A stretch of 64,000 bases of DNA, taken from contig JBOHWL010000136.1 in assembly GCA_050736615.1 (NCBI GenBank), positions 16,828 through 80,827 on the forward strand, given 5' to 3'. The stretch is from Candidatus Binataceae bacterium (lineage in GTDB: Bacteria; Desulfobacterota; Binatia; Binatales; Binataceae). Positions 1,949 through 60,672 of this stretch are shown here, one piece after another. Every line of letters begins with the position of its first letter. The stretch's first letter is position 1. The notes under the pieces are model-generated. The model was not told the DNA's origin. It did not search any database and was given only the letters and a program-made list of their open reading frames with translations. Both the position numbers and the translations under genes were made by a program.

Positions 1949-2050
1949 CCGCCCTGGAGAGTTAAAATAAATCGCCGGATGGCCCGGTTTCCCGCAGCTC
2001 GTGGGTTTGCCTGGTCGCTTCGCCGCGCGCAGCGCGGCTCCACTAGCCAC

Positions 2051-2082
2051 GCTCGAAATGACAGGGAAGGGCTTGTGCGGAG
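2051..2082. repeat. partial copy (right arm only) of the palindromic MITE/REP-like element family
   Basis: gcttcgccgcgcgcagcgcggctccactagccacgCTCGAAATGACAGggaaGGGCTTGTGCGGA matches both the interior and the right terminus (TTCGGAATGACAG) of the 17799-17872 copy. It also matches the right flank (GGGCTTGTGCGGA) of the 34937-35098 copy. No left terminus was found. Confidence 0.3.
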
Positions 2083-2161
2083 CTTCCTCGGATTCAATCA
2101 ATTGAAGACATGCTCTCAGGGCGGCGGGCCTCGCATCCCGCCGCCGTTGGCCGCCCGTCAC

Positions 2162-17661: not shown

Positions 17662-17798
17662 GACGAAAGGCATGTCGCGAGCCGGATGTGAGCCGCTGAG
17701 TAAGTTGGCTGGCTGAGGCACGGTCGTGCGTGTGAATTTGTCAGCCCAGCGTCGCGAGCGATCTCCGTCGTTTCACCGGTCTCAGAGTCTGTGAATTT

Positions 17799-17872
17799 TT
17801 GTCATTCTGAACGGAGTCCGCCGCCAGCTTCGCCGCACAGAGCGGCTCCGCTGGTGGTGTTCGGAATGACAG
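17799..17872. repeat. palindromic MITE/REP-like element, minimal ~74-bp copy
   Basis: Termini TTGTCATTCTGAACGGAG (17799-17816) and TTCGGAATGACAG (17860-17872) are inverted repeats. The interior ccgccgccagcttcgccgcacagagcggctccgctgg is itself near-palindromic. Related copies lie at 2051-2082, 34937-35098 and 60336-60607. Confidence 0.5.
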
Positions 17873-17959
17873 AAAAAAATCTTCGCACACTCTCAGGATG
17901 GCCATCGTGCGATCACCGTCGCTCCATCGTCATTGGAGAGGTAACCTCGCAAGCGCAAG

Positions 17960-33767: not shown

Positions 33768-34922
33768 ATGCGAACGATGGAGCGGCAGTCAGAGCGGAGT
33801 ACTCGTCAGGTGAGGATTGGTGGCGTGGTCGTGGGTGGCGACGCCCCGTTGGTGGTGCAATCGATGTGCGCCACGCGCACCATCGATGTTGATCAGACCG
33901 TCGCGCAGACCCATCAATTGGCCGCGGCGGGCGCCGGCATCGTGCGAATCGCACTGGATAACGAAAAAGAGGTCGCGCCGCTCAGAGAAATTCGTGCGCA
34001 GACCAAGGGCATCACGCTTTCGGTTGATTTGCAGGAGAATTATCGGATTGCCGGCAAAGTCGCGCCGCATGTGGACAAAATCCGCTATAACCCCGGCCAT
34101 CTGCACCACATTGAAAAGGCCAAAGCGATTCCGGACAAAGTGCGCTGGCTGACGGAAATTGCGCGCGACCACGACCTGGCGCTCAGAATCGGCGTCAACT
34201 GTGGTTCGGTGGCGCCCGTCTTTCTGAAGCGTTACCCAGACGACCAGCTCACCGCGCTGGTCGAATCCGCCGTCTATCATTGCGAGTTGATGGACGAATT
34301 TAGCTTCGACCGCTTTGTGGTTTCGCTTAAGGACTCAGATCCGGGCAAAGTGCTCGAAGCCAACCGCCGTTTCAATCAGCGGCGTCCCGATGTGCCGCTT
34401 CATCTTGGGGTGACTGAGGCGGGACTGCCACCCGACGGTATCACCAAAACCCGCATCGCCTTCGAAAAACTGCTGGCGAGCGGAATTGGCGATACCCTGC
34501 GGGTTTCACTCACGTTGCCCAATGAACGCAAGCATGAGGAAGTGCTGGTCGGTCATCAGATAATTCGCGACGTGGCGGCGGGCCGCTTCATCTCGGTGCC
34601 CGATTTCGGCACGGGCCTCAACATCATTTCGTGCCCGTCGTGCTCGCGAGTAGAGAACGAGAAATTCGTCGAGCTGGCGCAGCAGGTCAAGGATCTGACC
34701 GCGTATGCTTCACGCCATCGCATCACGATCGCGGTGATGGGCTGCCGGGTCAACGGCCCCGGAGAAACGGACGACGCGGATTTGGGATTATGGTGCGGAC
34801 CGACCACCGTAAACCTCAAACGCAAGGACGCCAAGCTCGGCAATTTCAAATACGACCAGGTTCTCAGCCGTTTAAAAGTGGAGGTCGACCGTCTCATCGC
34901 CGAGCGCTCCGCCGGCAATTAG
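33768..34922 (+). CDS. ispG: 4-hydroxy-3-methylbut-2-en-1-yl diphosphate synthase (flavodoxin) IspG/GcpE
   Basis: [36 protein letters not shown] are IspG motifs. GGAAAGG RBS before ATG 33768. Confidence 0.9.
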
Positions 34923-34936
34923 GGACTTCCGCAGAC

Positions 34937-35098
34937 GTCTTAATCTGTCATTCCGAGCCTGGCGAGGAATCCCGGATCTCTTTATCTTTTTAGGACTTTC
35001 CGTGATTCCTCACTTATCTCGAACGCACCTCACAGACTCGTTTGCTCGTTTCGCCTGTGGCTGCGCTGCGGCAGACTCCGTTCGGGATGACAAATGGG
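34937..35098. repeat. palindromic MITE/REP-like element, ~160-bp copy
   Basis: Left terminus GTCTTAATCTGTCATTCCGAG (34937-34957). Right terminus TTCGGGATGACAAAT (35081-35095), which is the inverted repeat of the left terminus. The interior gattcctcacttatctcgaacgcacctcacagactcgtttgctcg is ~85% identical to the 60514-60558 segment of the third copy. ORFs 34631-34993 and 35042-35452 are artefacts of this element. Confidence 0.5.
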
Positions 35099-35113
35099 CT
35101 TGTGCGGACCCTG

Positions 35114-35627
35114 TTAGGGCCGGAGGCGGGCGTAAATCAACCGGTCGCCGAGGCGGCCGTCCTTGATGATGCTGCGGCGCAGGCGCCCTTCAAAAGTATA
35201 GCCGGCTTTTTCAAGGACGCGGACGGAGGCGCCATTCCACGCGAATACGCCGGCTTCAATCCGCTCGAGATTGAGATGGGAGAAGGCGTAGCCGGTGGCC
35301 CGCTTCACCGCCGCCGTCGCAATTCCTTTGCCCCAAAATGGTTTGCTCAGCCAATAGCCGATTTCCACCGTCAGACGATTGACGTCTTTTTGCGGCTCGA
35401 ATCCGATACCGCCGATCGCCTCGCCGTCCAGTTCGATCGCGAATTCGATTGAGGAGACGCGTCCCGACGCGCATCGCGTGGTCCATTCCTCGGCCTCGCG
35501 GCGAGTGTACGGATGGGGGAAAACGATCACGTAGAGTCAGCCACACCTCGCGCTCATTGGCGTAACGAACCAGCGCTTCGACATCGCCAACGCTCCATTG
35601 ACGAAGCGTGATACGGTTCGGATCCAT
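35114..35627 (-). pseudogene. RimL/RimJ-like GNAT acetyltransferase split by a 1-nt indel in a G5/C5 homopolymer (35515-35519)
   Basis: The N-terminus MDPNRITLRQWSVGDVEALVRYANEREVWLTLRDRFP is in the 35256-35627 frame. The remainder, HPYTRREAEEW...GYWLSKPFWGKGIATAA, is in the 35114-35530 frame. Removing one C from ttttCCCCCatccg fuses them into a canonical RimL-type protein. Confidence 0.6.
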
Positions 35628-38114: not shown

Positions 38115-38628
38115 CTGAAACGTCGTTCCCCCGGTCAGGACTGCTGATTAACTAACACACTTCGGATCTATATCGAAACCGCGTGTGGAAGGAAAACCAA
38201 GCGGATCAAAACATTATTCTCAACACCAGCCGATCGTTTCCAACGAAGTTATACACAGATCGGACTCGCCATCGGTACAACAAAAGCCGTGTCCCAAATC
38301 GCCGTTGGATCAAGCCTCGGAGCGGAGGTTCACCAGCCCGCATGGCTAATTGCTATTCAGCAAAAACTCGGAAACTCAAGCCAATTCATCGCGATGTCGG
38401 CAAACCGGATCGAGGCGATATTACTTTCGCTTGCGATGCGCAAACAGCAATGTTAGTAATTCTTCCGTTTGCCCGCCGGAAATACGAATTGGCTGTAAAG
38501 CACGCGGCGAATCAATTTCCGGTTGACCGCAAAGGGGAATGCTTGTTAGTTGTGCTGCGCATCGCTTTTCGGCCCGCTTTTGCGGGTGGGGATTCTTCTG
38601 GCGTTGTCCGTGGAACTGAGTTGAAAAG

Positions 38629-39141
38629 ATGAATCGCTTATTAATTCCACTGGCCGTGTTCACGTTTCTATGCGGAGTGAGCGTGGTGGCTTTCTCCCAA
38701 CGCCCATGGGCACCGCGCGTGGACGTTACTCAGCCGCTGCCGTTCAGCCATCGCGTCCATGCCGGCGTCAACCACATTCCGTGCCAATACTGCCACGAGT
38801 ACGCGCGGCGCTCACAAACCTCGGGTGCGCCTCCGATCGAACGCTGTGTCGGATGTCATGGTAGTGCGCTGACCGGCGGGCTCAAGCCGGTTACGCGGGC
38901 ATGGACCGACCACCGGCATCAACCATTCGAAATTCGCTGGAACCGGGTCTACGTGCTGCCTGACTTCGTGCGTTTCGTCCATCGGCCCCATATCTGGGCC
39001 GGGGTGGCGTGCCAAACCTGCCACGGAGACGTGCAGACGATGGACCGCGTGACACCAGTTTATGAGATCAATATGGGTTTTTGCATCGATTGCCATACCA
39101 AGCGCGGTGCCACCCAGGATTGCTTCGTCTGTCATCACTGA
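38629..39141 (+). CDS. actA: Alternative Complex III subunit ActA (multihaem cytochrome c)
   Basis: Signal/anchor followed by CQYCH, CVGCH, CQTCH, CIDCH (four CxxCH) plus C-terminal CFVCHH. First gene of the act cluster. Confidence 0.8.
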   Translation: MNRLLIPLAVFTFLCGVSVVAFSQRPWAPRVDVTQPLPFSHRVHAGVNHIPCQYCHEYARRSQTSGAPPIERCVGCHGSALTGGLKPVTRAWTDHRHQPFEIRWNRVYVLPDFVRFVHRPHIWAGVACQTCHGDVQTMDRVTPVYEINMGFCIDCHTKRGATQDCFVCHH

Positions 39142-39153
39142 GCGAGGAGCGTT

Positions 39154-42117
39154 ATGTCAGAAGGGCTGTCCAGGCGATCATTCCTGAAGCTTGCCGCCAC
39201 GGCTTCGGCCGCCGCTGCAATCCCGGGGTGTGAGCCCGCCGCAAGAAAGCTGATTCCTTATGTGGTTCCCGACGAGTACGTCACGCCGGGCATCCCCAGC
39301 TTTTACGCCACCACTTGCGCCGAATGTGGCGCGGGATGTGGGATTATCGCGAAAATCCGCGAGGGCCGCGTAATCAAGCTTGAGGGCAATCCCAACGACC
39401 CGATCAGCGCGGGCGCGACCTGCGCGCGCGGACAAGCCGCGTTGCAGGGGCTGTACGATCCCGATCGTATCGGTAAGCCGAGCCGACGTGGCGACAGCGG
39501 GAAATTGCTAGAGATTTCTTGGGATAGCGCTACCAAGCAGTTCAATGACGAACTCGGCGCCGCGGCCAAAACTGGCAAAAATCGCATCGTTTATGTCGGC
39601 GCGCCGCAAGGACCGACGAACGACAAAATCGCGATGGCGTGGTTGCGGGCGTGGGGCTCTCAGTGGGCGATCTTTTGGGAAGCCATCAACGATGAAGCGG
39701 CGCGCCAAGCCGCTCAAAACTGTTTCGGCAGCCGCGCCCTGCCGGTCTACCGTTTCGACCAAGCCGAAACCATCATTTCGTTTGATGCCGACCTGCTTGG
39801 CACTTGGCGCTCGCCCGTCGAATATGCCCGCCAATACGCGGAATTCAGGGCGCCCAAGAAAAAGAATGGCGAATTAACGGTGGGCCGCGCGGTTTACGTC
39901 GGACCGCGCCTCAATATCACCGCGGCCAAAGCCGACCAGTGGGTTCGTGCCACTCCCGGCGCGGTTGGCGCGATTGCCATGTCGGTGCTCAACGTCGTCG
40001 TTAACCAGGGATGGATGAAGCCAAACGCCGGGCTTGATACGGTCGCGCTCAAGACCTTCGTCAGTGGCTACGATCCCGGCACGGTGGAAAAACAGACTGG
40101 TGCGCCAGCCGCCCAGATCAAGGAAATCGCGCAATGGTTCGGGCAGGCCGACCACTCGCTGGCGGTGGCTGATACGGACGACGTGCAGGCGCATACTGCC
40201 GCTTACCTGCTCAACCTCGCGACCGGGAACCTTGGCAAAACCATGATGTTTCTGGCCGATACGCCGGCCGAGGCGACCAGCCAGCCGCATGAAATTCGCG
40301 CCGTCGTCGACGCGATGCGCAATGGCGAGGTTGACGTGCTGGTGATCGCCGCCGGCGCCAATCCGCTTTACTCGATGCCGATATCGTACGGCTTTCGCGA
40401 AGCCGCCCGACGCGTGAAATTCGTCGCATGGCTGGGTACCGCACCGGACGAGAGCGCGGCGGCGGCCAATCTGCTCCTGCCAACGCATCATCCGCTTGAA
40501 AGCTGGCGCGACTCGGCCCCGCGCGCAGGGATCAATGGCCTGGGGCAGCCGGTCATGCAGCCAGTGTTTCCGAGCAAGCCGCTGGCCGACATCCTGCTTG
40601 CCTCGGCCCATCTGGGCGCGGCCGCTTCGGCTAAGGCGATTCCATGGGAAAGTGGCGCGGACGCGGTAAATTCCGCCTGGCAGGATTTGCAGAATAAGGC
40701 GGAACCGAATGCGACCTTCGCGGATTTTTGGGACAAGGCCCGCGCCAATGGTGGCTATTACCAGGAAGTCAAGCCGGCCACGCCGACGGTCAATGCGGCC
40801 GTATTTACGCAGACCTTCGCGCCGCCGATGGCCTCGGGACTGACCTTGGTTGCCTATCCTCACATATTTCTTTATGACGGACGTGGCGCCAACAAGTCCT
40901 GGCTGCAGGAAATCCCCGAACCGGTCGACCAGATGGTGTGGGATTCGTGGGCCGCGATTCATCCTGAGACCGCTGCACGCTTGGGTTTCCACAAGACCTA
41001 TCTGCCGAGCTACCTGTACGCGGGAATCGACGTGGTCGAGATAGACACGCCAAACGGCCGCGTGCATCTGGGCGTCCATATCACTCCGCTGGTTAAGCCT
41101 GACGTGATCGCCGTGCCGCTTGGCCAGGGGCATACCTCGTACGGCCGCTATGCTACCGATCGCGGAGTCAATTTGTGGCATCACCTGCCGCAAAACGCCC
41201 GCAGTGTCGTGATCAACGCGCACAAAGCCGCCGGTGAACAGCACAAGCTGGTGTCACCGCTCAACGGCAGCGACATGATGGGCCGCTCCATCATCGAGGG
41301 CCTGAGCGTCGCGGAACTGGTCAAGGGTGTCTTGCCGCCGGCGGAGGGGCCAAAGGTTCCTGAGCCGTACGAGATGTACCCGCCGTTCGATTATCCCGGT
41401 CACAAATGGGGCATGACGCTCGACGTGAATTCCTGCGTTGGCTGCAGCGCCTGTGTCGCCGCCTGTTACGCCGAAAATAACCTCGCTGTGGTGGGTAAAG
41501 AGGGGGTTGGTCGCGGGCGCGTGATGTCATGGATTCGGATCGAGCGTTTTATCCCTGAAGCGCGCACCAGCGATCATGCCCCGCTGCTTTATATGGCACC
41601 GATCATGTGCCAGCAGTGCGACCACGCGCCGTGCGAACCGGTCTGCCCGGTCTTCGCCTCGCATCATACGCCTGAGGGCTTGAACGCGCAGATCTACAAC
41701 CGCTGCATCGGCACGCGTTTTTGCGAGAACAACTGTCCTTACAAAGTGCGGCGCTTTAACTGGTTCCTGGCGGAATGGCCGGCGCCACTCAATCTGCAGC
41801 TCAATCCCGACGTAACCACCCGCGGCGCCGGCGTGATGGAGAAATGCACCTTCTGCATCCAGCGCATCACCTATGCCGAAATCAATGCGCGGCTGCAAAA
41901 GCGCCCAGTGATGGATGGCGAGATCATCCCAGCTTGCGCGCAAGCTTGTCCGGCGCGCGCGATTACTTTCGGCGACATCAATCAGGCCGACAGTGCCATG
42001 ATGCGCCGGCGCAAAGATAACCAGTTGAGGAACTACACGATGTTGCCTCAGTTCAATGCTCTGCCGAACGTGACCTATCTGCGCGCGCTGCGCCACGTGG
42101 AAAAAGGGAGAGCGTAA
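39154..42117 (+). CDS. actB: Alternative Complex III subunit ActB (molybdopterin-oxidoreductase-like + 4Fe-4S ferredoxin domains, Tat-exported)
   Basis: Tat motif SRRSFLKLAATASAAAA. N-terminal Cys cluster CAECGAGCG. C-terminal ferredoxin clusters CVGCSACVAAC, CQQCDHAPCEPVCP, CIGTRFCENNCPYKV, CTFCIQR. Confidence 0.85.
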   Translation: MSEGLSRRSFLKLAATASAAAAIPGCEPAARKLIPYVVPDEYVTPGIPSFYATTCAECGAGCGIIAKIREGRVIKLEGNPNDPISAGATCARGQAALQGLYDPDRIGKPSRRGDSGKLLEISWDSATKQFNDELGAAAKTGKNRIVYVGAPQGPTNDKIAMAWLRAWGSQWAIFWEAINDEAARQAAQNCFGSRALPVYRFDQAETIISFDADLLGTWRSPVEYARQYAEFRAPKKKNGELTVGRAVYVGPRLNITAAKADQWVRATPGAVGAIAMSVLNVVVNQGWMKPNAGLDTVALKTFVSGYDPGTVEKQTGAPAAQIKEIAQWFGQADHSLAVADTDDVQAHTAAYLLNLATGNLGKTMMFLADTPAEATSQPHEIRAVVDAMRNGEVDVLVIAAGANPLYSMPISYGFREAARRVKFVAWLGTAPDESAAAANLLLPTHHPLESWRDSAPRAGINGLGQPVMQPVFPSKPLADILLASAHLGAAASAKAIPWESGADAVNSAWQDLQNKAEPNATFADFWDKARANGGYYQEVKPATPTVNAAVFTQTFAPPMASGLTLVAYPHIFLYDGRGANKSWLQEIPEPVDQMVWDSWAAIHPETAARLGFHKTYLPSYLYAGIDVVEIDTPNGRVHLGVHITPLVKPDVIAVPLGQGHTSYGRYATDRGVNLWHHLPQNARSVVINAHKAAGEQHKLVSPLNGSDMMGRSIIEGLSVAELVKGVLPPAEGPKVPEPYEMYPPFDYPGHKWGMTLDVNSCVGCSACVAACYAENNLAVVGKEGVGRGRVMSWIRIERFIPEARTSDHAPLLYMAPIMCQQCDHAPCEPVCPVFASHHTPEGLNAQIYNRCIGTRFCENNCPYKVRRFNWFLAEWPAPLNLQLNPDVTTRGAGVMEKCTFCIQRITYAEINARLQKRPVMDGEIIPACAQACPARAITFGDINQADSAMMRRRKDNQLRNYTMLPQFNALPNVTYLRALRHVEKGRA

Positions 42118-43485
42118 ATGGCCGCAGTCGTTCAAGAGCAAGAGGTTCCTACTTACCTCGACATTGATCGCACGATCCAGAAGCAGTTGCTGGCGCCGGG
42201 CGGCGTCAAATACTGGCTGTGGGTGGGCTTCTGCGCGCTCCTTACCGCGGTCGGCATCGGCTGCTGGACCAATCAGATCTATTCGGGGTTGGGCGTTACC
42301 GGATTGTCCCAGCCCACCATGTGGGCGGTTTACATTACCAACTTCGTTTTCTGGGTTGGTATTGCGCATGCGGGCACGCTGATCTCCGCTATTCTTTATC
42401 TGTTCCGTACGCGCTGGCGCACCGGGATTTTCCGTGCCGCCGAGACCATGACCATCTTCGCGATCGCGACCGCCGGCTTGTTCCCGGTTATTCACTTGGG
42501 ACGGCCATGGTTTTTTTACTGGCTCATCCCATACCCCAACGAACGCTATCTGCAGCCGGACTTTCGCTCGCCGCTAGTATGGGATTTTTTCGCGATCAGC
42601 ACCTACCTGACGATCAGCGTGTTGTTCTGGGCTACCGGCCTGATTCCCGATACTGCCAATGTGCGTGAAGTGGCGACGGGCTGGCGCAAGACATTATACA
42701 AAATCTGGTCGGTGGGATGGCAGGGCACCGACCGACAATGGCGCAACTTCTCGATGCTCTACATCCTGCTGGCGGGCTTTGCGACGCCGCTGGTGCTCTC
42801 GGTGCACAGCGTCGTGTCATGGGACTTTGCCATGATGCAGCTGCCCGGCATGCACAGCACGATTTTCGCACCCTATTTCGTCGCCGGCGCGATTTTCTCG
42901 GGCTGCGCCTTGGTCATCACACTGGTGGTGCCGTTGCGCAAGTTCTGGCATCTCGAGGAGGCCATCACCATCTGGCACCTCGACAATTTAGCCAAGGTGG
43001 TGCTGCTGACCTCGCTAATTATTACCTATTCGTACTGTTGCGAATCGTTCATGACCTGGTACAGCGGCGATCTGATCGAAATCGCGACCTTTCAAAATCG
43101 GTACTTCGGGCCGGAGGCCTGGATGTTCTGGTTGATGATCTTCTGCAACTGTGTGGCGCCGCTGGCCTATTTCGTGCCACGCGTGCGCACCAACGCGACG
43201 GGCCTGTTCGTGATCTCGATCTTCGTCAATATCGGCATGTGGTTCGAGCGCTTCGTGATTATCGCCGGCTCGCTCGCGACCAACACCGAGCCTTCGCAAT
43301 GGCGCTTTTACACCTTCCAGCCCACCGAGATCCTGATCACTGTCGGCAGCTTTGGATGGTTTCTGATGAACTTCTTTTTGTTCGCGAAGTTCATGCCGAT
43401 CGTATCAATGACGGAGCTTAAGGAAGGCGTCGGTTATTTACGGCAGGCGGTGACCGAAACTTACCCATACAAGAAGGTAGCATGA
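42118..43485 (+). CDS. actC: Alternative Complex III subunit ActC (NrfD/PsrC-like polytopic membrane subunit)
   Basis: 455-aa 10-TM protein with an NrfD-like pattern. ATG is adjacent to the actB stop. Confidence 0.8.
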   Translation: MAAVVQEQEVPTYLDIDRTIQKQLLAPGGVKYWLWVGFCALLTAVGIGCWTNQIYSGLGVTGLSQPTMWAVYITNFVFWVGIAHAGTLISAILYLFRTRWRTGIFRAAETMTIFAIATAGLFPVIHLGRPWFFYWLIPYPNERYLQPDFRSPLVWDFFAISTYLTISVLFWATGLIPDTANVREVATGWRKTLYKIWSVGWQGTDRQWRNFSMLYILLAGFATPLVLSVHSVVSWDFAMMQLPGMHSTIFAPYFVAGAIFSGCALVITLVVPLRKFWHLEEAITIWHLDNLAKVVLLTSLIITYSYCCESFMTWYSGDLIEIATFQNRYFGPEAWMFWLMIFCNCVAPLAYFVPRVRTNATGLFVISIFVNIGMWFERFVIIAGSLATNTEPSQWRFYTFQPTEILITVGSFGWFLMNFFLFAKFMPIVSMTELKEGVGYLRQAVTETYPYKKVA

Positions 43486-44012
43486 GCGACGAAATTGCAT
43501 TGGTGGCCTCGTTTCGCACCGTGGACGATTGCGCGCGGGCAGTCGAGACCCTTCATCACGCCCATATTAATGTCGATAGGTTCGGCACGTTCTCGCCATT
43601 CCCCAATGAGCGCTTGAACGAAGCGGTAAATGAAATCCGCCGCCTGGGGCCCAGCCGCGTGCGTCTGTGGGTGCTGGCCGGCGGCATCATCGGCGCGATC
43701 AGCGGTTTTGTCCTCACCATCGGCACCTCGTGGGAATGGAACCTGATGACCGGTGGCAAGCCGATCGCTTCAATTCCGCCCTTCATCGTAATCGCCTTTG
43801 AGCTGATGATTTTGTTCGGCGGAATGATGGGATGGACGGGCTTTTATTTTCATGCGCGGCTGCCCGCATTTGATTCAGCGCCGGGCTACCGATCGCGCTT
43901 TGGGGCCGATCATTTCGGCTTATTTCTGCAATGCGAAGAAGATGACGCGGCGCGGTTGGAGGCGCTGCTACGCGACAATGGCGCCGACGAAATCGTACGC
44001 GAAGCCGCGTGA
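43482..44012 (+). CDS. actD: Alternative Complex III subunit ActD
   Basis: Small protein with a central TM pair between actC and actF, DUF3341-like. Start overlaps the actC stop (ATGA). Confidence 0.65.
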   Translation: MSDEIALVASFRTVDDCARAVETLHHAHINVDRFGTFSPFPNERLNEAVNEIRRLGPSRVRLWVLAGGIIGAISGFVLTIGTSWEWNLMTGGKPIASIPPFIVIAFELMILFGGMMGWTGFYFHARLPAFDSAPGYRSRFGADHFGLFLQCEEDDAARLEALLRDNGADEIVREAA

Positions 44013-44051
44013 TCGGAATGCCGGTCCGAATTCAGAAGGCCTGAATGCAAG

Positions 44052-45272
44052 ATGAGTCCTAATCAACCCGCATCGTTGGGAGCAGCCGCGGTTCGCCAGA
44101 TCCATGAGCCGCTGCGGCTTTCGTGGAATCGCTATATCGGCGTCTGCATTATTCTGGTCATCATCGGCGTGGTGGCGTTCATCTTCGGGCTGGTGACCGG
44201 CTACGCCAACCGCGTCTGGGAGACCTACCTGGTCAACCTGCTGTTCTTTATTGGCATCGCGCAAAGCGGCATCGTCGTCTCCTGCGCCTTTTATTTGACC
44301 AACGGCCGCTGGTGTGGCGTGACTCATTATCGGTTGGCCGAAGCCTTCTGGGGCTTCATCCCACTCGGCTTCCTTCTGTACTGGGGTGTGTTTTTTGGCC
44401 GGATGCATATTTTCCCCTGGTTGACCCATCCGAGCCTGTTGTATTCGCCTTCCAAGCACATCTGGCTCAACGTACCGTTTCTCTTCACCCGCGACGGCAT
44501 CGCCCTGCTGGTGCTGACCATCCTGAGCTGGTGGTTCGTACGGCTTTCGCGTGGGCCCGCGGCCGAGACCTGGATGCTGGATCGCGAGACGATCGAGATG
44601 CCACCGGCGGCTTTGCGACGGCTGGCGCCGATCATCGCGATTCTCTATTGCTTCATCTATTCGATGTTGTCGGTCGATTTGATCATGGGGTTGTCGCCGG
44701 TCTGGCGCAGCACGCTGTTCGGATGGTGGTATTTCGGCGCCGATTTCTGGAGCGCAATCGTCGCGGCGGCGCTGGTAGCGGTGGTTTTGCGCGGCCGGAT
44801 CGGCCGCCCCAACGTGTTTCAGGATGGCGAGAAGCTGCATGACATTGGCAAACTGATTTTTGCCTTCTCGATCTTTTGGATCTACTTGTCGTTTGCGCAG
44901 TATCTGGTGATTTGGTATGGCGATATCCCGGCCGAGACTTACTTCATTGTGGTCCGCGCATGGCATCAGCCCTGGTCAACCCTGACCTGGATGTCGCCGC
45001 TTTTAATGTGGGTGGTGCCGTTTGTGGTGCTGATGGGCGTTCAACCCAAGAAAAATCCATATGTGCTGGGCATCGTCGCGGCCTTGGGTTTAATCGGGGT
45101 GTGGATTCTCAACTACATTCTGATAGTCCCTTCGTGGCATCCCAATGACCTGCCGTTCGGATGGGTGGAAATCTGTGTGACGCTGGGATTCCTTGGCGCC
45201 TTCGGTCTTTGCTCCAAGCCAGGGTTGGCGCGCACGGCGGCCGCCGCGGTCACCGTCGTGGATGGAGAGTAA
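44052..45272 (+). CDS. actF: Alternative Complex III subunit ActF (second NrfD-like membrane subunit)
   Basis: 406-aa polytopic membrane protein paralogous in architecture to ActC. No haem motifs. No actE-like monohaem gene lies between actD and actF or after actF. Confidence 0.75.
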   Translation: MSPNQPASLGAAAVRQIHEPLRLSWNRYIGVCIILVIIGVVAFIFGLVTGYANRVWETYLVNLLFFIGIAQSGIVVSCAFYLTNGRWCGVTHYRLAEAFWGFIPLGFLLYWGVFFGRMHIFPWLTHPSLLYSPSKHIWLNVPFLFTRDGIALLVLTILSWWFVRLSRGPAAETWMLDRETIEMPPAALRRLAPIIAILYCFIYSMLSVDLIMGLSPVWRSTLFGWWYFGADFWSAIVAAALVAVVLRGRIGRPNVFQDGEKLHDIGKLIFAFSIFWIYLSFAQYLVIWYGDIPAETYFIVVRAWHQPWSTLTWMSPLLMWVVPFVVLMGVQPKKNPYVLGIVAALGLIGVWILNYILIVPSWHPNDLPFGWVEICVTLGFLGAFGLCSKPGLARTAAAAVTVVDGE

Positions 45273-46318
45273 TGATGAGGGCGCGGAACCGATTGCTCAA
45301 ATTTTGCGGAATTGCCGGCGCGGTTGCTTTCGCCGCGTCCATCAGCGGCTGCACTACCGCCGTCTATCCGATGGATACGCTGCGTCCGACCTCCGATCTT
45401 ACGCGCGAGATCCTCTGGCTGTTCAATTGGGTCACCGCTTGGGATTGCCTGGTATTGGCGGTAGTGGCGCTCACTCTGTTCGGGGCGATTTTCATCTTTT
45501 CATCGCGCCAGGGTGATCCGGGTGAACCCTCCTCCACCCATTCGTCACTTTCTCTCGAACTGGCCTGGACCGTGCTGCCGGCATTGATCCTGCTGGCGAT
45601 TACCATCCCCACGATTCATACGATCGTGCATACGCAGCCGGACCGATGGCCGCATAACGCGTTTACCGTTCGAGTCATCGCGCATCAATGGTGGTGGGAG
45701 TTCAAATATCCTACGCTCGGCATCGACACCGCCGACGAAGTGCATATTCCGGAAAACCGCGAGATCCATTTTGAACTGGTTTCCGACGATGTGATTCACA
45801 GCTTCTTTATGCCGCAGGTGGGAGCCAAGCGCGACGTCGTGCCGGGCCAGATGAATCAGATTACGCTGACGGCGAACGTGCCGGGAATGTATTACGGCCA
45901 ATGCGCGGAGTTTTGCGGAACCTCACACGCCAACATGCGCTTTCGCGTGTTCGTCGATACACCGGCCGGTTTCAAGAAGTGGGTCGCCGACCAGCTCGCT
46001 CCCCCGTTCAAGCCAACCGCGGGGTCGGCTTTGGCTGGAGAGAAAATTTTCGTCAACGCGCCATGTGCGATTTGCCATACGATCAAGGGCATCTCAGGTT
46101 TTTCCAAGCAGTACACGTTCGGTTTCAAAGGGCCCAACTTGTCGCATTTCGGCAGCCGGACCAGCCTGGCCGGCAGCATTCTCGATAACACGCCGCAAAA
46201 TGTGGCGATGTGGATCAAAAATCCCGACCAAGTGAAGCCTGGCGCTAACATGCCGACTCTCGGTATGCGCGGCCAGCAGCTTAACGATCTGGTCGCCTAT
46301 CTCGAAAGCCTTAAGTAG
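45272..46318 (+). CDS. coxB: cytochrome c oxidase subunit II with C-terminal cytochrome c domain (caa3-type)
   Basis: Start reassigned to ATG 45272 (TAATG overlap with the actF stop, GGAGAG RBS). CuA site HSFFMP...CAEFCGTSHANM. C-terminal CAICH haem c motif. Confidence 0.85.
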   Translation: MMRARNRLLKFCGIAGAVAFAASISGCTTAVYPMDTLRPTSDLTREILWLFNWVTAWDCLVLAVVALTLFGAIFIFSSRQGDPGEPSSTHSSLSLELAWTVLPALILLAITIPTIHTIVHTQPDRWPHNAFTVRVIAHQWWWEFKYPTLGIDTADEVHIPENREIHFELVSDDVIHSFFMPQVGAKRDVVPGQMNQITLTANVPGMYYGQCAEFCGTSHANMRFRVFVDTPAGFKKWVADQLAPPFKPTAGSALAGEKIFVNAPCAICHTIKGISGFSKQYTFGFKGPNLSHFGSRTSLAGSILDNTPQNVAMWIKNPDQVKPGANMPTLGMRGQQLNDLVAYLESLK

Positions 46319-60113: not shown

Positions 60114-60335
60114 CGGGCTGTTGAAAAATCACAGCCTGCACCCCCTCTCTTTCTCCCCCGCAAAAGGGCGGGAGAGAAGCTCGAGGAAAGCAGTATGTTC
60201 TAACGCAGCTCGCGGACTCGCCTGCTCGGCTCCACTTCGCTCCGCCTGGTGCTTTACGCAGGGTGTCGAGGGCACTGGGTGCAACTTGCGCTAAGAGCCC
60301 TTTTTCAACACCCTGCTAAGGGAGCCTCTGCGCAA

Positions 60336-60607
60336 GTCTTAATCTGTCATTTCGAGCGTGGCTAGCGGAGTCGCGCTGCGCGGCGAAGCGAGCACACCAG
60401 TGGAGCGAAGCGGAACGAGCGGGCGAGTCTGCGAGCCGTGTTCCGGGTAAATTGAGTCCGCGAGCTGTGTATAAAAGCGCGGAAATTTGTTCATTTCCTT
60501 CGGTTTGTCCGGGATTCCTCATTTATTTCGAACGCACCTGCAGACTCGTTCGCTCGCATAGTCTTCGGCTACGCTAATGGCGGGCTCCGTTGGGAATGAC
60601 AAAGGGG
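60336..60607. repeat. palindromic MITE/REP-like element, expanded ~270-bp copy inside a repeat-rich convergent intergenic region
   Basis: Left terminus GTCTTAATCTGTCATTTCGAGC (60336-60357). Right terminus TTGGGAATGACAAAG (60590-60604). Segment 60514-60558 (gattcctcatttatttcgaacgcacctgcagactcgttcgctcg) is ~85% identical to the interior of the 34937-35098 copy. The reverse complement of the left interior (60358-60420) matches the 2051-2082 partial copy. Confidence 0.5.
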
Positions 60608-60672
60608 TATCGACAGAACCGGTGACCAGCCCTCAGCCGCGCGTCCGGCCGGGCGGGCGGCGGCATCGGCAG

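Follow-up and report, generated by a model that had tools for sequence, protein, structure and literature searches.

Probable miniature transposable elements combining IS5-like terminal repeats with a TGTC-tagged hairpin core at four intergenic loci of a Binataceae genome

Introduction

Among the bacterial repeats described so far, the closest to the elements treated here are the CGTC-tagged repetitive extragenic palindromes (REPs) surveyed by Di Nocera et al. (2013, PMC3733652). These are hairpins with an unpaired tag at one end (CGTC, TGTC or CCTC variants, and often TGTC), a stem of 8-9 bp that starts with A-T and then T-A, a loop of 4-5 nt and a short tail with the consensus CCA; they occur mostly as inverted dimers, are reported from five phyla, include dRS3 of Neisseria and RPE-4 and RPE-6 of Rickettsia, and have no known dedicated transposase. 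In this work, we describe four loci, A to D, in a 64,000-nt stretch of DNA from a Candidatus Binataceae bacterium (assembly GCA_050736615.1, contig JBOHWL010000136.1; hereafter the window), which are probably non-autonomous transposable elements of the miniature inverted-repeat kind (MITEs), each made of an outer inverted-repeat shell and an inner hairpin layer.

Other known systems share parts of this design. QMITE2 of Coxiella burnetii is a MITE of 150-190 bp with a GTAG-type REP core and variable direct repeats of 7-11 bp (Wachter et al., 2018, PMC5896051), and is a precedent for a REP inside a MITE. It resembles the elements of the window in having inverted and direct repeats around a REP, in truncated copies that look like plain REPs, and in its position at gene 3' ends, where it sometimes supplies the stop codon, but its repeats are unrelated to those of the window family. 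REPIN-RAYT systems, which Bertels and Rainey reportedly described in 2011, are said to have a GTAG tag, no target duplication, and a RAYT gene flanked by REPs. They are likewise non-autonomous and present in high copy number, with two inverted REP hairpins forming a longer hairpin, whereas here the tag is TGTC, duplications are present, and no Y1 gene was found near the loci. The E. coli insertion sequence (IS) IS5, which has 16-bp repeats, makes CTAG duplications (PMC10379815), and the window family likewise has a 4-bp duplication, at YTAR (Y, pyrimidine; R, purine). MITEs derived from the IS5 family are similar in their size of about 108 bp, in having no open reading frame (ORF) and in their many copies; they differ in that neither the window nor the roughly 2 Mb of sequence fetched here yielded a parent IS or transposase, that the core is a REP-like hairpin pair and not the remnant of a transposase gene, and that the host belongs to an uncultured phylum (Binatota).

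The likeness to the CGTC/TGTC REPs comprises the TGTC tag, a 9-position stem that starts with A-T and T-A, the short loop, the inverted dimers and heterodimers, the spread across phyla and the lack of an adjacent transposase, and it is a fit to the published description rather than to the sequences of families 1-4. On the other hand, the hairpin extends here to more than 15 named groups among the matches listed, against the five phyla published; it has, as drawn, a 3-nt loop and a tandem G.A mismatch, against a published loop of 4-5 nt; and its dimers are enclosed by inverted repeats and duplications, a feature that PMC3733652 does not describe for CGTC repeats. The kind of element, a MITE with a REP-like core, is known. 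The family itself, and the combination in which an IS5-type shell encloses a TGTC-tagged hairpin core, are not described in the literature searched, in which sequence strings retrieved unrelated primers only. The family is selfish DNA of an ordinary kind whose core is unusually widespread.

Results and Discussion

Four related loci and their outer boundaries

A first, sequence-only reading of the window had proposed a mobile family of MITE- or REP-like repeats at four intergenic loci, delimited by TGTCATTC...GAATGACA. The relationship among the four loci is borne out by matches to a 13-mer, by common interiors and by an independent profile. With zero or one mismatch, the 13-mer occurs seven times in the window, always inside the four loci. 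In addition, an nhmmer profile made from 69 metagenome copies, with window sequence excluded, recovered loci A, B, C and D alone (E-values from 1.4e-6 to 0.03) and added none, so that the list of four is complete for the window. Identity reaches 82% over 62 nt between A and the left end of D, 89% over 27 nt between B and C, and 79% over 38 nt between B and D, and C and D are colinear over their entire length; with interiors related in this way, the likeness is not a chance one confined to short termini. Over the whole of locus C, a second assembly (L001) shows 100% identity. None of the four loci lies within a gene, as had been stated: A is flanked by a luciferase-like monooxygenase gene and a 205-aa gene, C by ispG and a GNAT acetyltransferase gene, and D by a lipase-like gene and a 443-aa gene, the two genes being convergent in each case, and B follows a cyclase-family gene and precedes a methyltransferase gene.

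The proposed termini were wrong, as TGTCATTC and GAATGACA belong to subterminal TGTC-tagged hairpin units of about 21 nt and the real ends are further out. Direct repeats abut the TGTC...GACA palindromes in 6 of 122 cases at k = 2, the chance level, and because no direct repeats abut them, these palindromes do not behave as transposon termini. Likeness in A, C and D runs about 20-25 bp past the ends first proposed, to positions 2087, 34923, 35113 and 60320, and the outward sequence ...CYCYGCRCAAG... is common to the window copies and another Binataceae locus (L072). The shell of A, C and D has terminal inverted repeats of 15-17 nt, GGRRSYYCYGCRCAAG, located about 20-25 bp outside the TGTC units. 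All features are listed in Table 1.

Target-site duplications had been suggested as a test of mobility, and they were found. Metagenomes were scanned for the right TGTC end in combination with the inner half of the outer motif, which returned at least 120 loci, mostly from assembly JADEYI01. The copies are near-identical, with the layout YTAR GGAACCTCTGCACAAG GCTCTGC TGTCACCCTGAGCGCAGCGCATGGGTC CCGGATCCGG GATTCTTCGCTGCGCTCAGAATGACA ACCTAA CTTGTGCAGAGGTTCC YTAR, and unrelated sequence starts directly outside the inverted repeats. Complete copies with paired repeats number 81 among the 120 metagenome loci listed, mostly of 107-111 bp (mode, 108 bp), and identical 4-mers flank 42 copies (CTAG/CTAG in 20, CTAA/CTAA in 14, TTAG/TTAG in seven, ATAG/ATAG in one), these duplications and boundaries, as well as the left inverted repeat and the outer six bases of the right one, being outside the search pattern. 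None of the 81 copies pairs CTAA with TTAG; as CTAA pairs with CTAA and never with its complement, the flanks are direct repeats, that is, target-site duplications. YTAR adjoins 162 of 216 repeat ends. Within the window, locus C shows the same duplication (TTAG/TTAG), and B only a weak TCA/TCA. We also observed that many of the metagenome matches lie 15-60 nt from a locus or contig end (L135, L151, L160-L162 and L214, among L127-L246), which suggests that these repeats break short-read assemblies.

Comparison with relatives provided a filled and an empty site. The contig of a Binataceae relative (L248), whose IspG is 91% identical to that of the window, carries, in the spacer that separates an anti-sigma gene from smpB, an element of 142 bp, in the order ...GAAGTTC CTAA GGACCCTCCGTACAAG...TGTC dimer...ATGCAGAGCTTCC CTAA CGGTTGCGG, while the orthologous site of the window is empty and holds a single CTAA (GCGTTTC CTAA CGGTTGCGG). 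The element in this pair is a sister copy rather than one of loci A to D; in the case of C and B, the element is simply lacking in the relatives. Specifically, four orthologous ispG-GNAT spacers (41-70 bp, against 191 bp for the element here; IspG 86-91% identical) do not contain the element of locus C, and that of B is absent downstream of three orthologous cyclase genes. These filled and empty differences at orthologous sites indicate that the elements were gained or lost since the species diverged, and the elements thereby record recent transposon turnover between Binataceae species. As a separate observation, B sits at a synteny breakpoint: the gene after the cyclase-family gene is a different one in every relative, and the spacer measures 16-80 bp in relatives (L253, 6368-6393; L254, 10931-11010; L255, 10931-10946) against 298 bp here (17662-17959).

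Altogether, with sizes from 108 to about 306 bp and four loci within 64 kb, the family is small, non-coding and multicopy, and the proposal of mobile MITE/REP-like repeats in intergenic 3' regions is supported.

Position at gene 3' ends and the possibility of a regulatory role

The position of the loci could be taken to mean that they are hairpins selected by the host as terminators or stabilisers of mRNA 3' ends, and not mobile DNA. REP hairpins stabilise upstream mRNA in E. coli, an effect that could be supposed for the present loci too, three of the four loci lie between convergent genes, and B forms a very stable hairpin. The 131-nt region of B, the sole strong palindrome of the four loci, folds at -60.8 kcal/mol (z = -5.4). 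Folding each copy had been recommended, and the expectation of a strong palindrome held for B and failed for the others: C and D (z of about -1.2 to -1.3) and A (z of about 0) fold like shuffled sequence. A terminator role, which had also been put forward, is not supported, in view of the lack of a T-tract after the hairpins and of a terminator scan that found no site at the main hairpins of B, C and D; in B, T-runs precede the stem and A-runs follow it, the reverse of what a terminator needs. No Rfam family reached its gathering threshold in the window, an E-value scan of locus B gave only sub-threshold chance matches to snoRNAs, and no tRNA or tmRNA was detected. Taken with the absence of the elements at orthologous sites of close relatives, a purely regulatory origin is very improbable.

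Another account of the 3' bias is offered by the target. YTAR holds a stop codon (TAG or TAA) on both strands, which explains the bias towards 3' ends and convergent genes without invoking function, and gives a reason for the build-up of MITEs at gene 3' ends in GC-rich genomes. In agreement, at 55 of 164 ends an open frame of 100 codons or more terminates in the TAR of the duplication, compared with 22 and 11 for the other two frames. In practice, this provides a concrete annotation rule for Binatota and other metagenome-assembled genomes from soil, in which gene ends beside such elements need care on account of their stop codons. Such repeats may also seed spurious small ORFs.

The TGTC-tagged hairpin pair

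The inner layer is built of units with a TGTC tag, the arms ATTCYGAGC and GCGARGAAT around GAA, and a following C, that is, a 9-position stem with a 3-nt loop and a tandem G.A mismatch. The tail varies (CT, CC or CCA), and the loop is of 3 nt as drawn or of 5 nt with the last pair opened. The family had been thought specific to its lineage, which does not hold for this unit. A scan with TGTCATTYYGARC-N30-60-GYTCRRAATGACA, taking one genome per species, returned at least 120 loci, and among the matches listed the unit is present in more than 15 phyla or named groups: Acidobacteriota, Nitrospirota, Gemmatimonadota, Bacteroidota (Hymenobacter isolates included), Chloroflexota, Armatimonadota, Verrucomicrobiota, Ignavibacteria, Chlorobi, Planctomycetota, Alpha-, Beta-, Gamma- and Deltaproteobacteria (with Luteimonas isolates and Nitrosomonas), Clostridia, Methylomirabilia, and another Binataceae (L072). 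It was also seen on five viral contigs and two Calothrix plasmids.

Covariation points to the single hairpin as the selected unit. In 126 distinct palindromes, the inner 5-mer is the exact complement of the outer 5-mer of its own arm in 223 of 252 arms, with ATTCT/AGAAT (118), ATTCC/GGAAT (58) and ATTTC/GAAAT (45) as the pairs. Moreover, in 24 heterodimers 42 of the 48 arms complement their own arm and two the partner arm. Among 75 distinct arms, compensatory changes occur at three stem pairs (CG/UA at two of them, GC/AU at one), with 69 double-change cells observed against 26.7 +/- 4.5 after shuffling; none of 500 shuffles reached the observed value, and controls in which the arms were slid collapsed. 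An A-U and two U-A stem pairs are invariant. Own-arm complementarity and compensatory changes therefore mark the single hairpin, about 21 nt in length, as the selected unit rather than the long palindrome, and this hairpin is under selection as a single-strand structure. One property is, however, circular, namely the invariance of TGTC in the 75 aligned arms, as the search pattern required the tag, although TGTC is nonetheless present at all window ends. The inverted dimers were likewise selected by the pattern. In the same alignment (L002-L126), the tandem G.A/A.G mismatch (columns 10-11 and 19-20) is kept in 71-72 of 75 arms, beside a mini-hairpin of the GCGAAGC type. This conserved mismatch looks like a feature for specific recognition of single strands rather than part of a plain stem. 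The hairpin could serve as a binding site, as a conserved subterminal part of parent insertion sequences, or as an independently spreading module.

An inverted pair of tagged, covarying hairpins is the layout of a REPIN, and the pair might itself be mobile as single-stranded DNA through a RAYT-type transposase (IS200/IS605-like, Y1 HUH) encoded elsewhere. The lack of a duplication beside the TGTC...GACA palindrome is what HUH transposition would leave, and no outer inverted repeat could be detected around about two thirds of the dimers of other phyla. We nevertheless consider this unlikely. The unit gained or lost in Binataceae-type elements runs from repeat to repeat and carries a 4-bp duplication, unlike the products of HUH Y1 enzymes, and the tag, TGTC, differs from the GTAG that RAYT-associated REPs carry. 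No recurrent Y1 or other transposase gene was found near 125 loci of many phyla, and in the 2013 survey, too, CGTC-tagged repeats were not found to flank any transposase gene (PMC3733652).

Outside Binataceae, the hairpin pair is not always carried in an inverted-repeat shell. A clear outer inverted repeat (score of at least 12) surrounds 32 of 123 dimers of other phyla, against 1 of 123 in a mismatched control. The same design was found in Nitrosomonas, with a 108-bp element bearing the repeat GGAGCCTCTGAATAA and TTA flanks (L082) and another with CTAG flanks (L020), and in Methylotenera, with the repeat GGATTCACGGAACAAG (L032). We tentatively raise the idea, doubtful as it stands, that the CGTC/TGTC REP superfamily spreads across phyla as the core or subterminal module of IS5-type MITEs that insert at YTAR or TNA, often on stop codons, solo dimers being their decayed or shell-less remnants. 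If true, it would name the missing mobilising machinery of a pan-bacterial class of repeats and account for the clustering of these repeats at gene 3' ends. A widespread hairpin repeat without a known enzyme is here tied to a shell with a recognisable transposase signature, a link that can be tested both in genomes and in vitro. In other phyla, short tandem repeats (GGCAGTCGGCACTC..., CACGGATGG..., GGGAATC...), and not simple inverted repeats, flank several TGTC dimers (L006, 880-930 and 1025-1080; L039; L060; L150).

Locus B and a second kind of shell

Locus B differs from the other three in its outer repeats, which begin with GAG, agree at 9 of 11 positions and have T- and A-runs inward of them. 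The TCA/TCA beside them is a putative target-site duplication of the TNA type; it is a direct repeat, since an inverted-repeat reading would give TGA, and can equally be read as 5-bp CTCAG/CTCAG. The metagenome profile matches only the core of B (profile positions 21-89, E = 0.029), and comparison with canonical units shows that B is without their inner RRAAT half-stems. In their place is a GC-rich module, GGAGYCGCnCTGnGCGGCGAAGC, a pattern that the window matches exactly at two places, one in B and one in D (0.02 matches expected), and that is also present in A, with a 2-nt insertion. As none of the 277 fetched loci has it, the module is private to the source organism among the sequences fetched. 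B is best read as a second type of shell around a derived TGTC palindrome in which the inner half-stems are replaced by the GC-rich hairpin module.

Repeats homologous to those of B, GAGTTTGTGAAGTTTTT...AAATTCACAAACTC, bound a 98-bp metagenome element with TGA duplications (L189, L196 and L207). This GAG-type element is inserted in the TGA of TGTC units, L189 and L196 in one type of unit and L207 in the other, and its nesting turns 108-bp copies into 209-bp copies. Modular growth by internal insertion, inferred at first from the sizes of the window copies, is thus supported by this nesting and by an indel of about 108 nt between C and D. The sites are at about 902-1002 in L189, 11939-12039 in L196 and 7046-7146 in L207, with ATTC-TGA-GCG as the target; they represent at least two independent insertions of the 98-bp MITE into TGTC units, and the 209-bp composite is present in several copies. 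The TGTC hairpin unit seems to be a preferred target of the GAG-type element.

The existence of two shells bears on a further explanation, in which the TGTC palindrome would be an independent insertion module, moved by another enzyme, that lands preferentially in the centres of other palindromic elements, the shells being its hosts and not its ends. The core does occur within at least two Binataceae shell types (GGAACC/YTAR and GAG/TNA) and, in other phyla, within lineage-specific outer repeats (the 32 of 123 dimers against 1 of 123 given above), and a GAG-type element without the core exists, so that B looks chimeric. However, we found no filled and empty pair differing in the TGTC core alone, all 108-bp copies carry the core, no target duplication or consistent junction marks its boundary, and the only nesting observed is the opposite one, of the GAG-type element into TGTC units. 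This explanation is therefore improbable. As to how the layers are related, the TGTC units may be subterminal parts conserved in a broad group of IS5-family elements, cargo captured repeatedly by the shells, or units that spread by a route of their own.

Candidate mobilising enzyme and weight of the evidence

Judged from sequence, 16-nt inverted repeats together with a 4-bp YTAR duplication have the signature of IS5. The ends of IS5 of E. coli K-12, GGAAGGTGCGAAYAAG (= GGAAGGTGCGAATAAG and GGAAGGTGCGAACAAG), share 10-11 of 16 positions with the element repeat, including the inner end ...ACAAG. Repeats that start with GAG and a 3-bp TNA duplication, as in B, are presumably a trait of the IS1031 subgroup, as repeats starting with GG and 4-bp YTAR/CTAG duplications are of the IS5 group, and the assignment to IS5 draws partly on such ISfinder subgroup traits. 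From these repeat and duplication signatures we infer that both shells are moved in trans by DDE transposases of the IS5 family. A tyrosine, IS200 or IS110 type of transposase, as had been suggested, does not fit with fixed duplications of 3-4 bp at YTAR or TNA and IS5-like repeats. In our reading, the outer shell of A, C and D inserts at YTAR tetranucleotides and duplicates them, often on stop codons, which the duplication regenerates; an IS5-family DDE transposase would act in trans on shells of both the A/C/D and the B type; the inner layer is formed by two TGTC-tagged units, each of about 21 nt, in inverted arrangement; and copies decay, and grow through nested insertion and internal indels.

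As the sequence-only reading had anticipated, the cognate transposase is absent from the window. A phmmer search with E. coli IS5 InsH against 9,883 ORFs of all loci and the window gave no match. All-against-all clustering of ORFs around the 125 loci of many phyla grouped housekeeping genes only (ABC ATPases, histidine kinases, oxidoreductases), and clustering of multicopy ORFs in the metagenome loci returned orthologous loci only. A blastn search of plasmids with a 116-nt consensus found the TGTC unit alone, in the two Calothrix plasmids, and when viral contigs were scanned for exact copies of the inverted repeat, 21 isolated matches turned up, with neither a YTAR flank nor a partner, which is consistent with chance.

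Several points count against the interpretation of the four loci as MITEs. A clean 4-bp duplication is found only in C of the window copies, A is one-ended, and the right end of D is degenerate. B is weakly anchored, with its duplication of 3 bp (or 5 bp) and its short repeats matching at nine of 11 positions. The metagenome matches were selected for the inner half of the right inverted repeat, which biases the search, and neither the window nor the approximately 2 Mb fetched yielded a transposase whose ends match. In addition, the dimers of other phyla without a detectable outer repeat (about two thirds) are left without a shell. Even so, the paired repeats, the duplications, the empty site and the metagenome copy number make this interpretation the probable one.

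Architecture of the window copies

Coordinates of the four loci and of the empty target site are given in Table 1. Locus C holds the only complete canonical unit among the window copies, and its outer ATTCC is complementary to the inner GGAAT, as in the 223 of 252 arms from other phyla. In B, in A and on the left side of D, the tag and outer half-stem are retained and the loop is replaced or expanded. C and D each have one degenerate inverted unit.

Table 1. Features of loci A to D and of the unoccupied target site (positions in the window; HU, hairpin unit; IR, inverted repeat; TSD, target-site duplication).
Locus	Feature	Position	Strand	Basis or remark
A	One-ended remnant	2016-2087	-	IR, spacer, TGTC half-unit, GC-rich module; profile match ends 2087
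A	Complement of one end only, CGCTCGAAATGACA	2050-2063
A	IR CTTGTGCGGAGCTTCC	2072-2087
B	Whole element, 108 bp, GAG-type IR shell round TGTC palindrome	17785-17892	+
B	TCA, putative 3-bp (TNA) TSD, left copy	17782-17784
B	Left outer repeat GAGTCTGTGAA	17785-17795
B	Minimal copy, 72-bp imperfect palindrome	17800-17871		Outer halves of two TGTC-tagged units round GC-rich hairpin
B	Left motif TGTCATTCTGAAC	17800-17812
B	GC-rich interior module GGAGCCGCTCTGTGCGGCGAAGC	17827-17849	-
B	Right motif GTTCGGAATGACA	17859-17871		Complement of left motif
B	Right outer repeat TTCGCACACTC	17882-17892
B	TCA, putative TSD, right copy	17893-17895
Empty site	Unoccupied target, single CTAA	28179-28182		CTA is smpB stop codon; alignment with L248
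C	Whole element, 191-bp IS5-type MITE, repeat to repeat	34923-35113	+	Profile alignment end exactly 34923
C	Left TSD TTAG	34919-34922		Includes ispG stop codon TAG
C	Left IR GGACTTCCGCAGACGT	34923-34938
C	Left motif TGTCATTCCGAGC	from 34946
C	Canonical HU, TGTC-ATTCCGAGC...GCGAGGAAT-C	34946-34971	+
C	Second HU, inverted, degenerate, tag gone (GATTCCTCACTTATCTCGAACGCACC)	35004-35029	-	Comparison with canonical right arms; also in D
C	Right TGTC-tagged outer half-unit GTTCGGGATGACA	35080-35092	-
C	Right IR CTTGTGCGGACCCTG	35099-35113
C	Right TSD TTAG	35114-35117		TTA is stop codon (TAA) of minus-strand GNAT gene
D	Whole element, decayed, about 306 bp, right end uncertain	60320-60625	+	Alignment; profile match from 60322
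D	Left IR GGGAGCCTCTGCGCAAG	60320-60336		CTAA before it at 60316-60319
D	Left TGTC-tagged outer half-unit TGTCATTTCGAGC	60345-60357	+
D	GC-rich module GGAGTCGCGCTGCGCGGCGAAGC in D-specific insert	60367-60389	+
D	Inverted degenerate HU, common to C	60513-60538	-
D	Right TGTC-tagged outer half-unit GTTGGGAATGACA	60589-60601	-

Locus D corresponds to C plus the indel of about 108 nt, which falls within the left hairpin unit, and its degenerate right repeat has no matching duplication. The D-specific segment (60358-60465) has the size of a whole 108-bp element, yet is without recognisable inverted repeats, and its first 50 nt or so are also found in remnant A. CGAGC was tried as a duplication bounding the extra 108 nt and rejected, as the stretch contains five CGAGC. 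In A, the four bases past the repeat are TCGG and not YTAR, and the partner repeat is absent; a left inverted repeat at about 1987-2002 was too weak to be claimed. Just past this remnant, the minus strand carries at 1975-1987 a hairpin that resembles a terminator, CCGGGCCATCCGG and then CGATTTATTT; this is the strand of the 205-aa gene (2162-2779), which reads through A. A resemblance of the elements to attC/integron sites and to Correia elements was considered and dropped, as the core motifs do not fit.

At C, the two copies of TTAG form the ends of both convergent genes, that of ispG and that of the GNAT gene. IspG ends 1-6 codons earlier than in relatives, with GGC AAT TAG here against GGC AAT AAC TGA in L249 (8750-8860) and a longer tail in L248 (10380-10500), and the insertion may have reset its C-terminus. 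Downstream of C, a conserved cluster (about 38183-46318) that is syntenic in relatives (L249, 12364-18792) encodes a multihaem cytochrome c, a molybdopterin oxidoreductase of 987 aa, an NrfD-like protein and an ActD-like protein, and resembles a module of the alternative-complex-III type.

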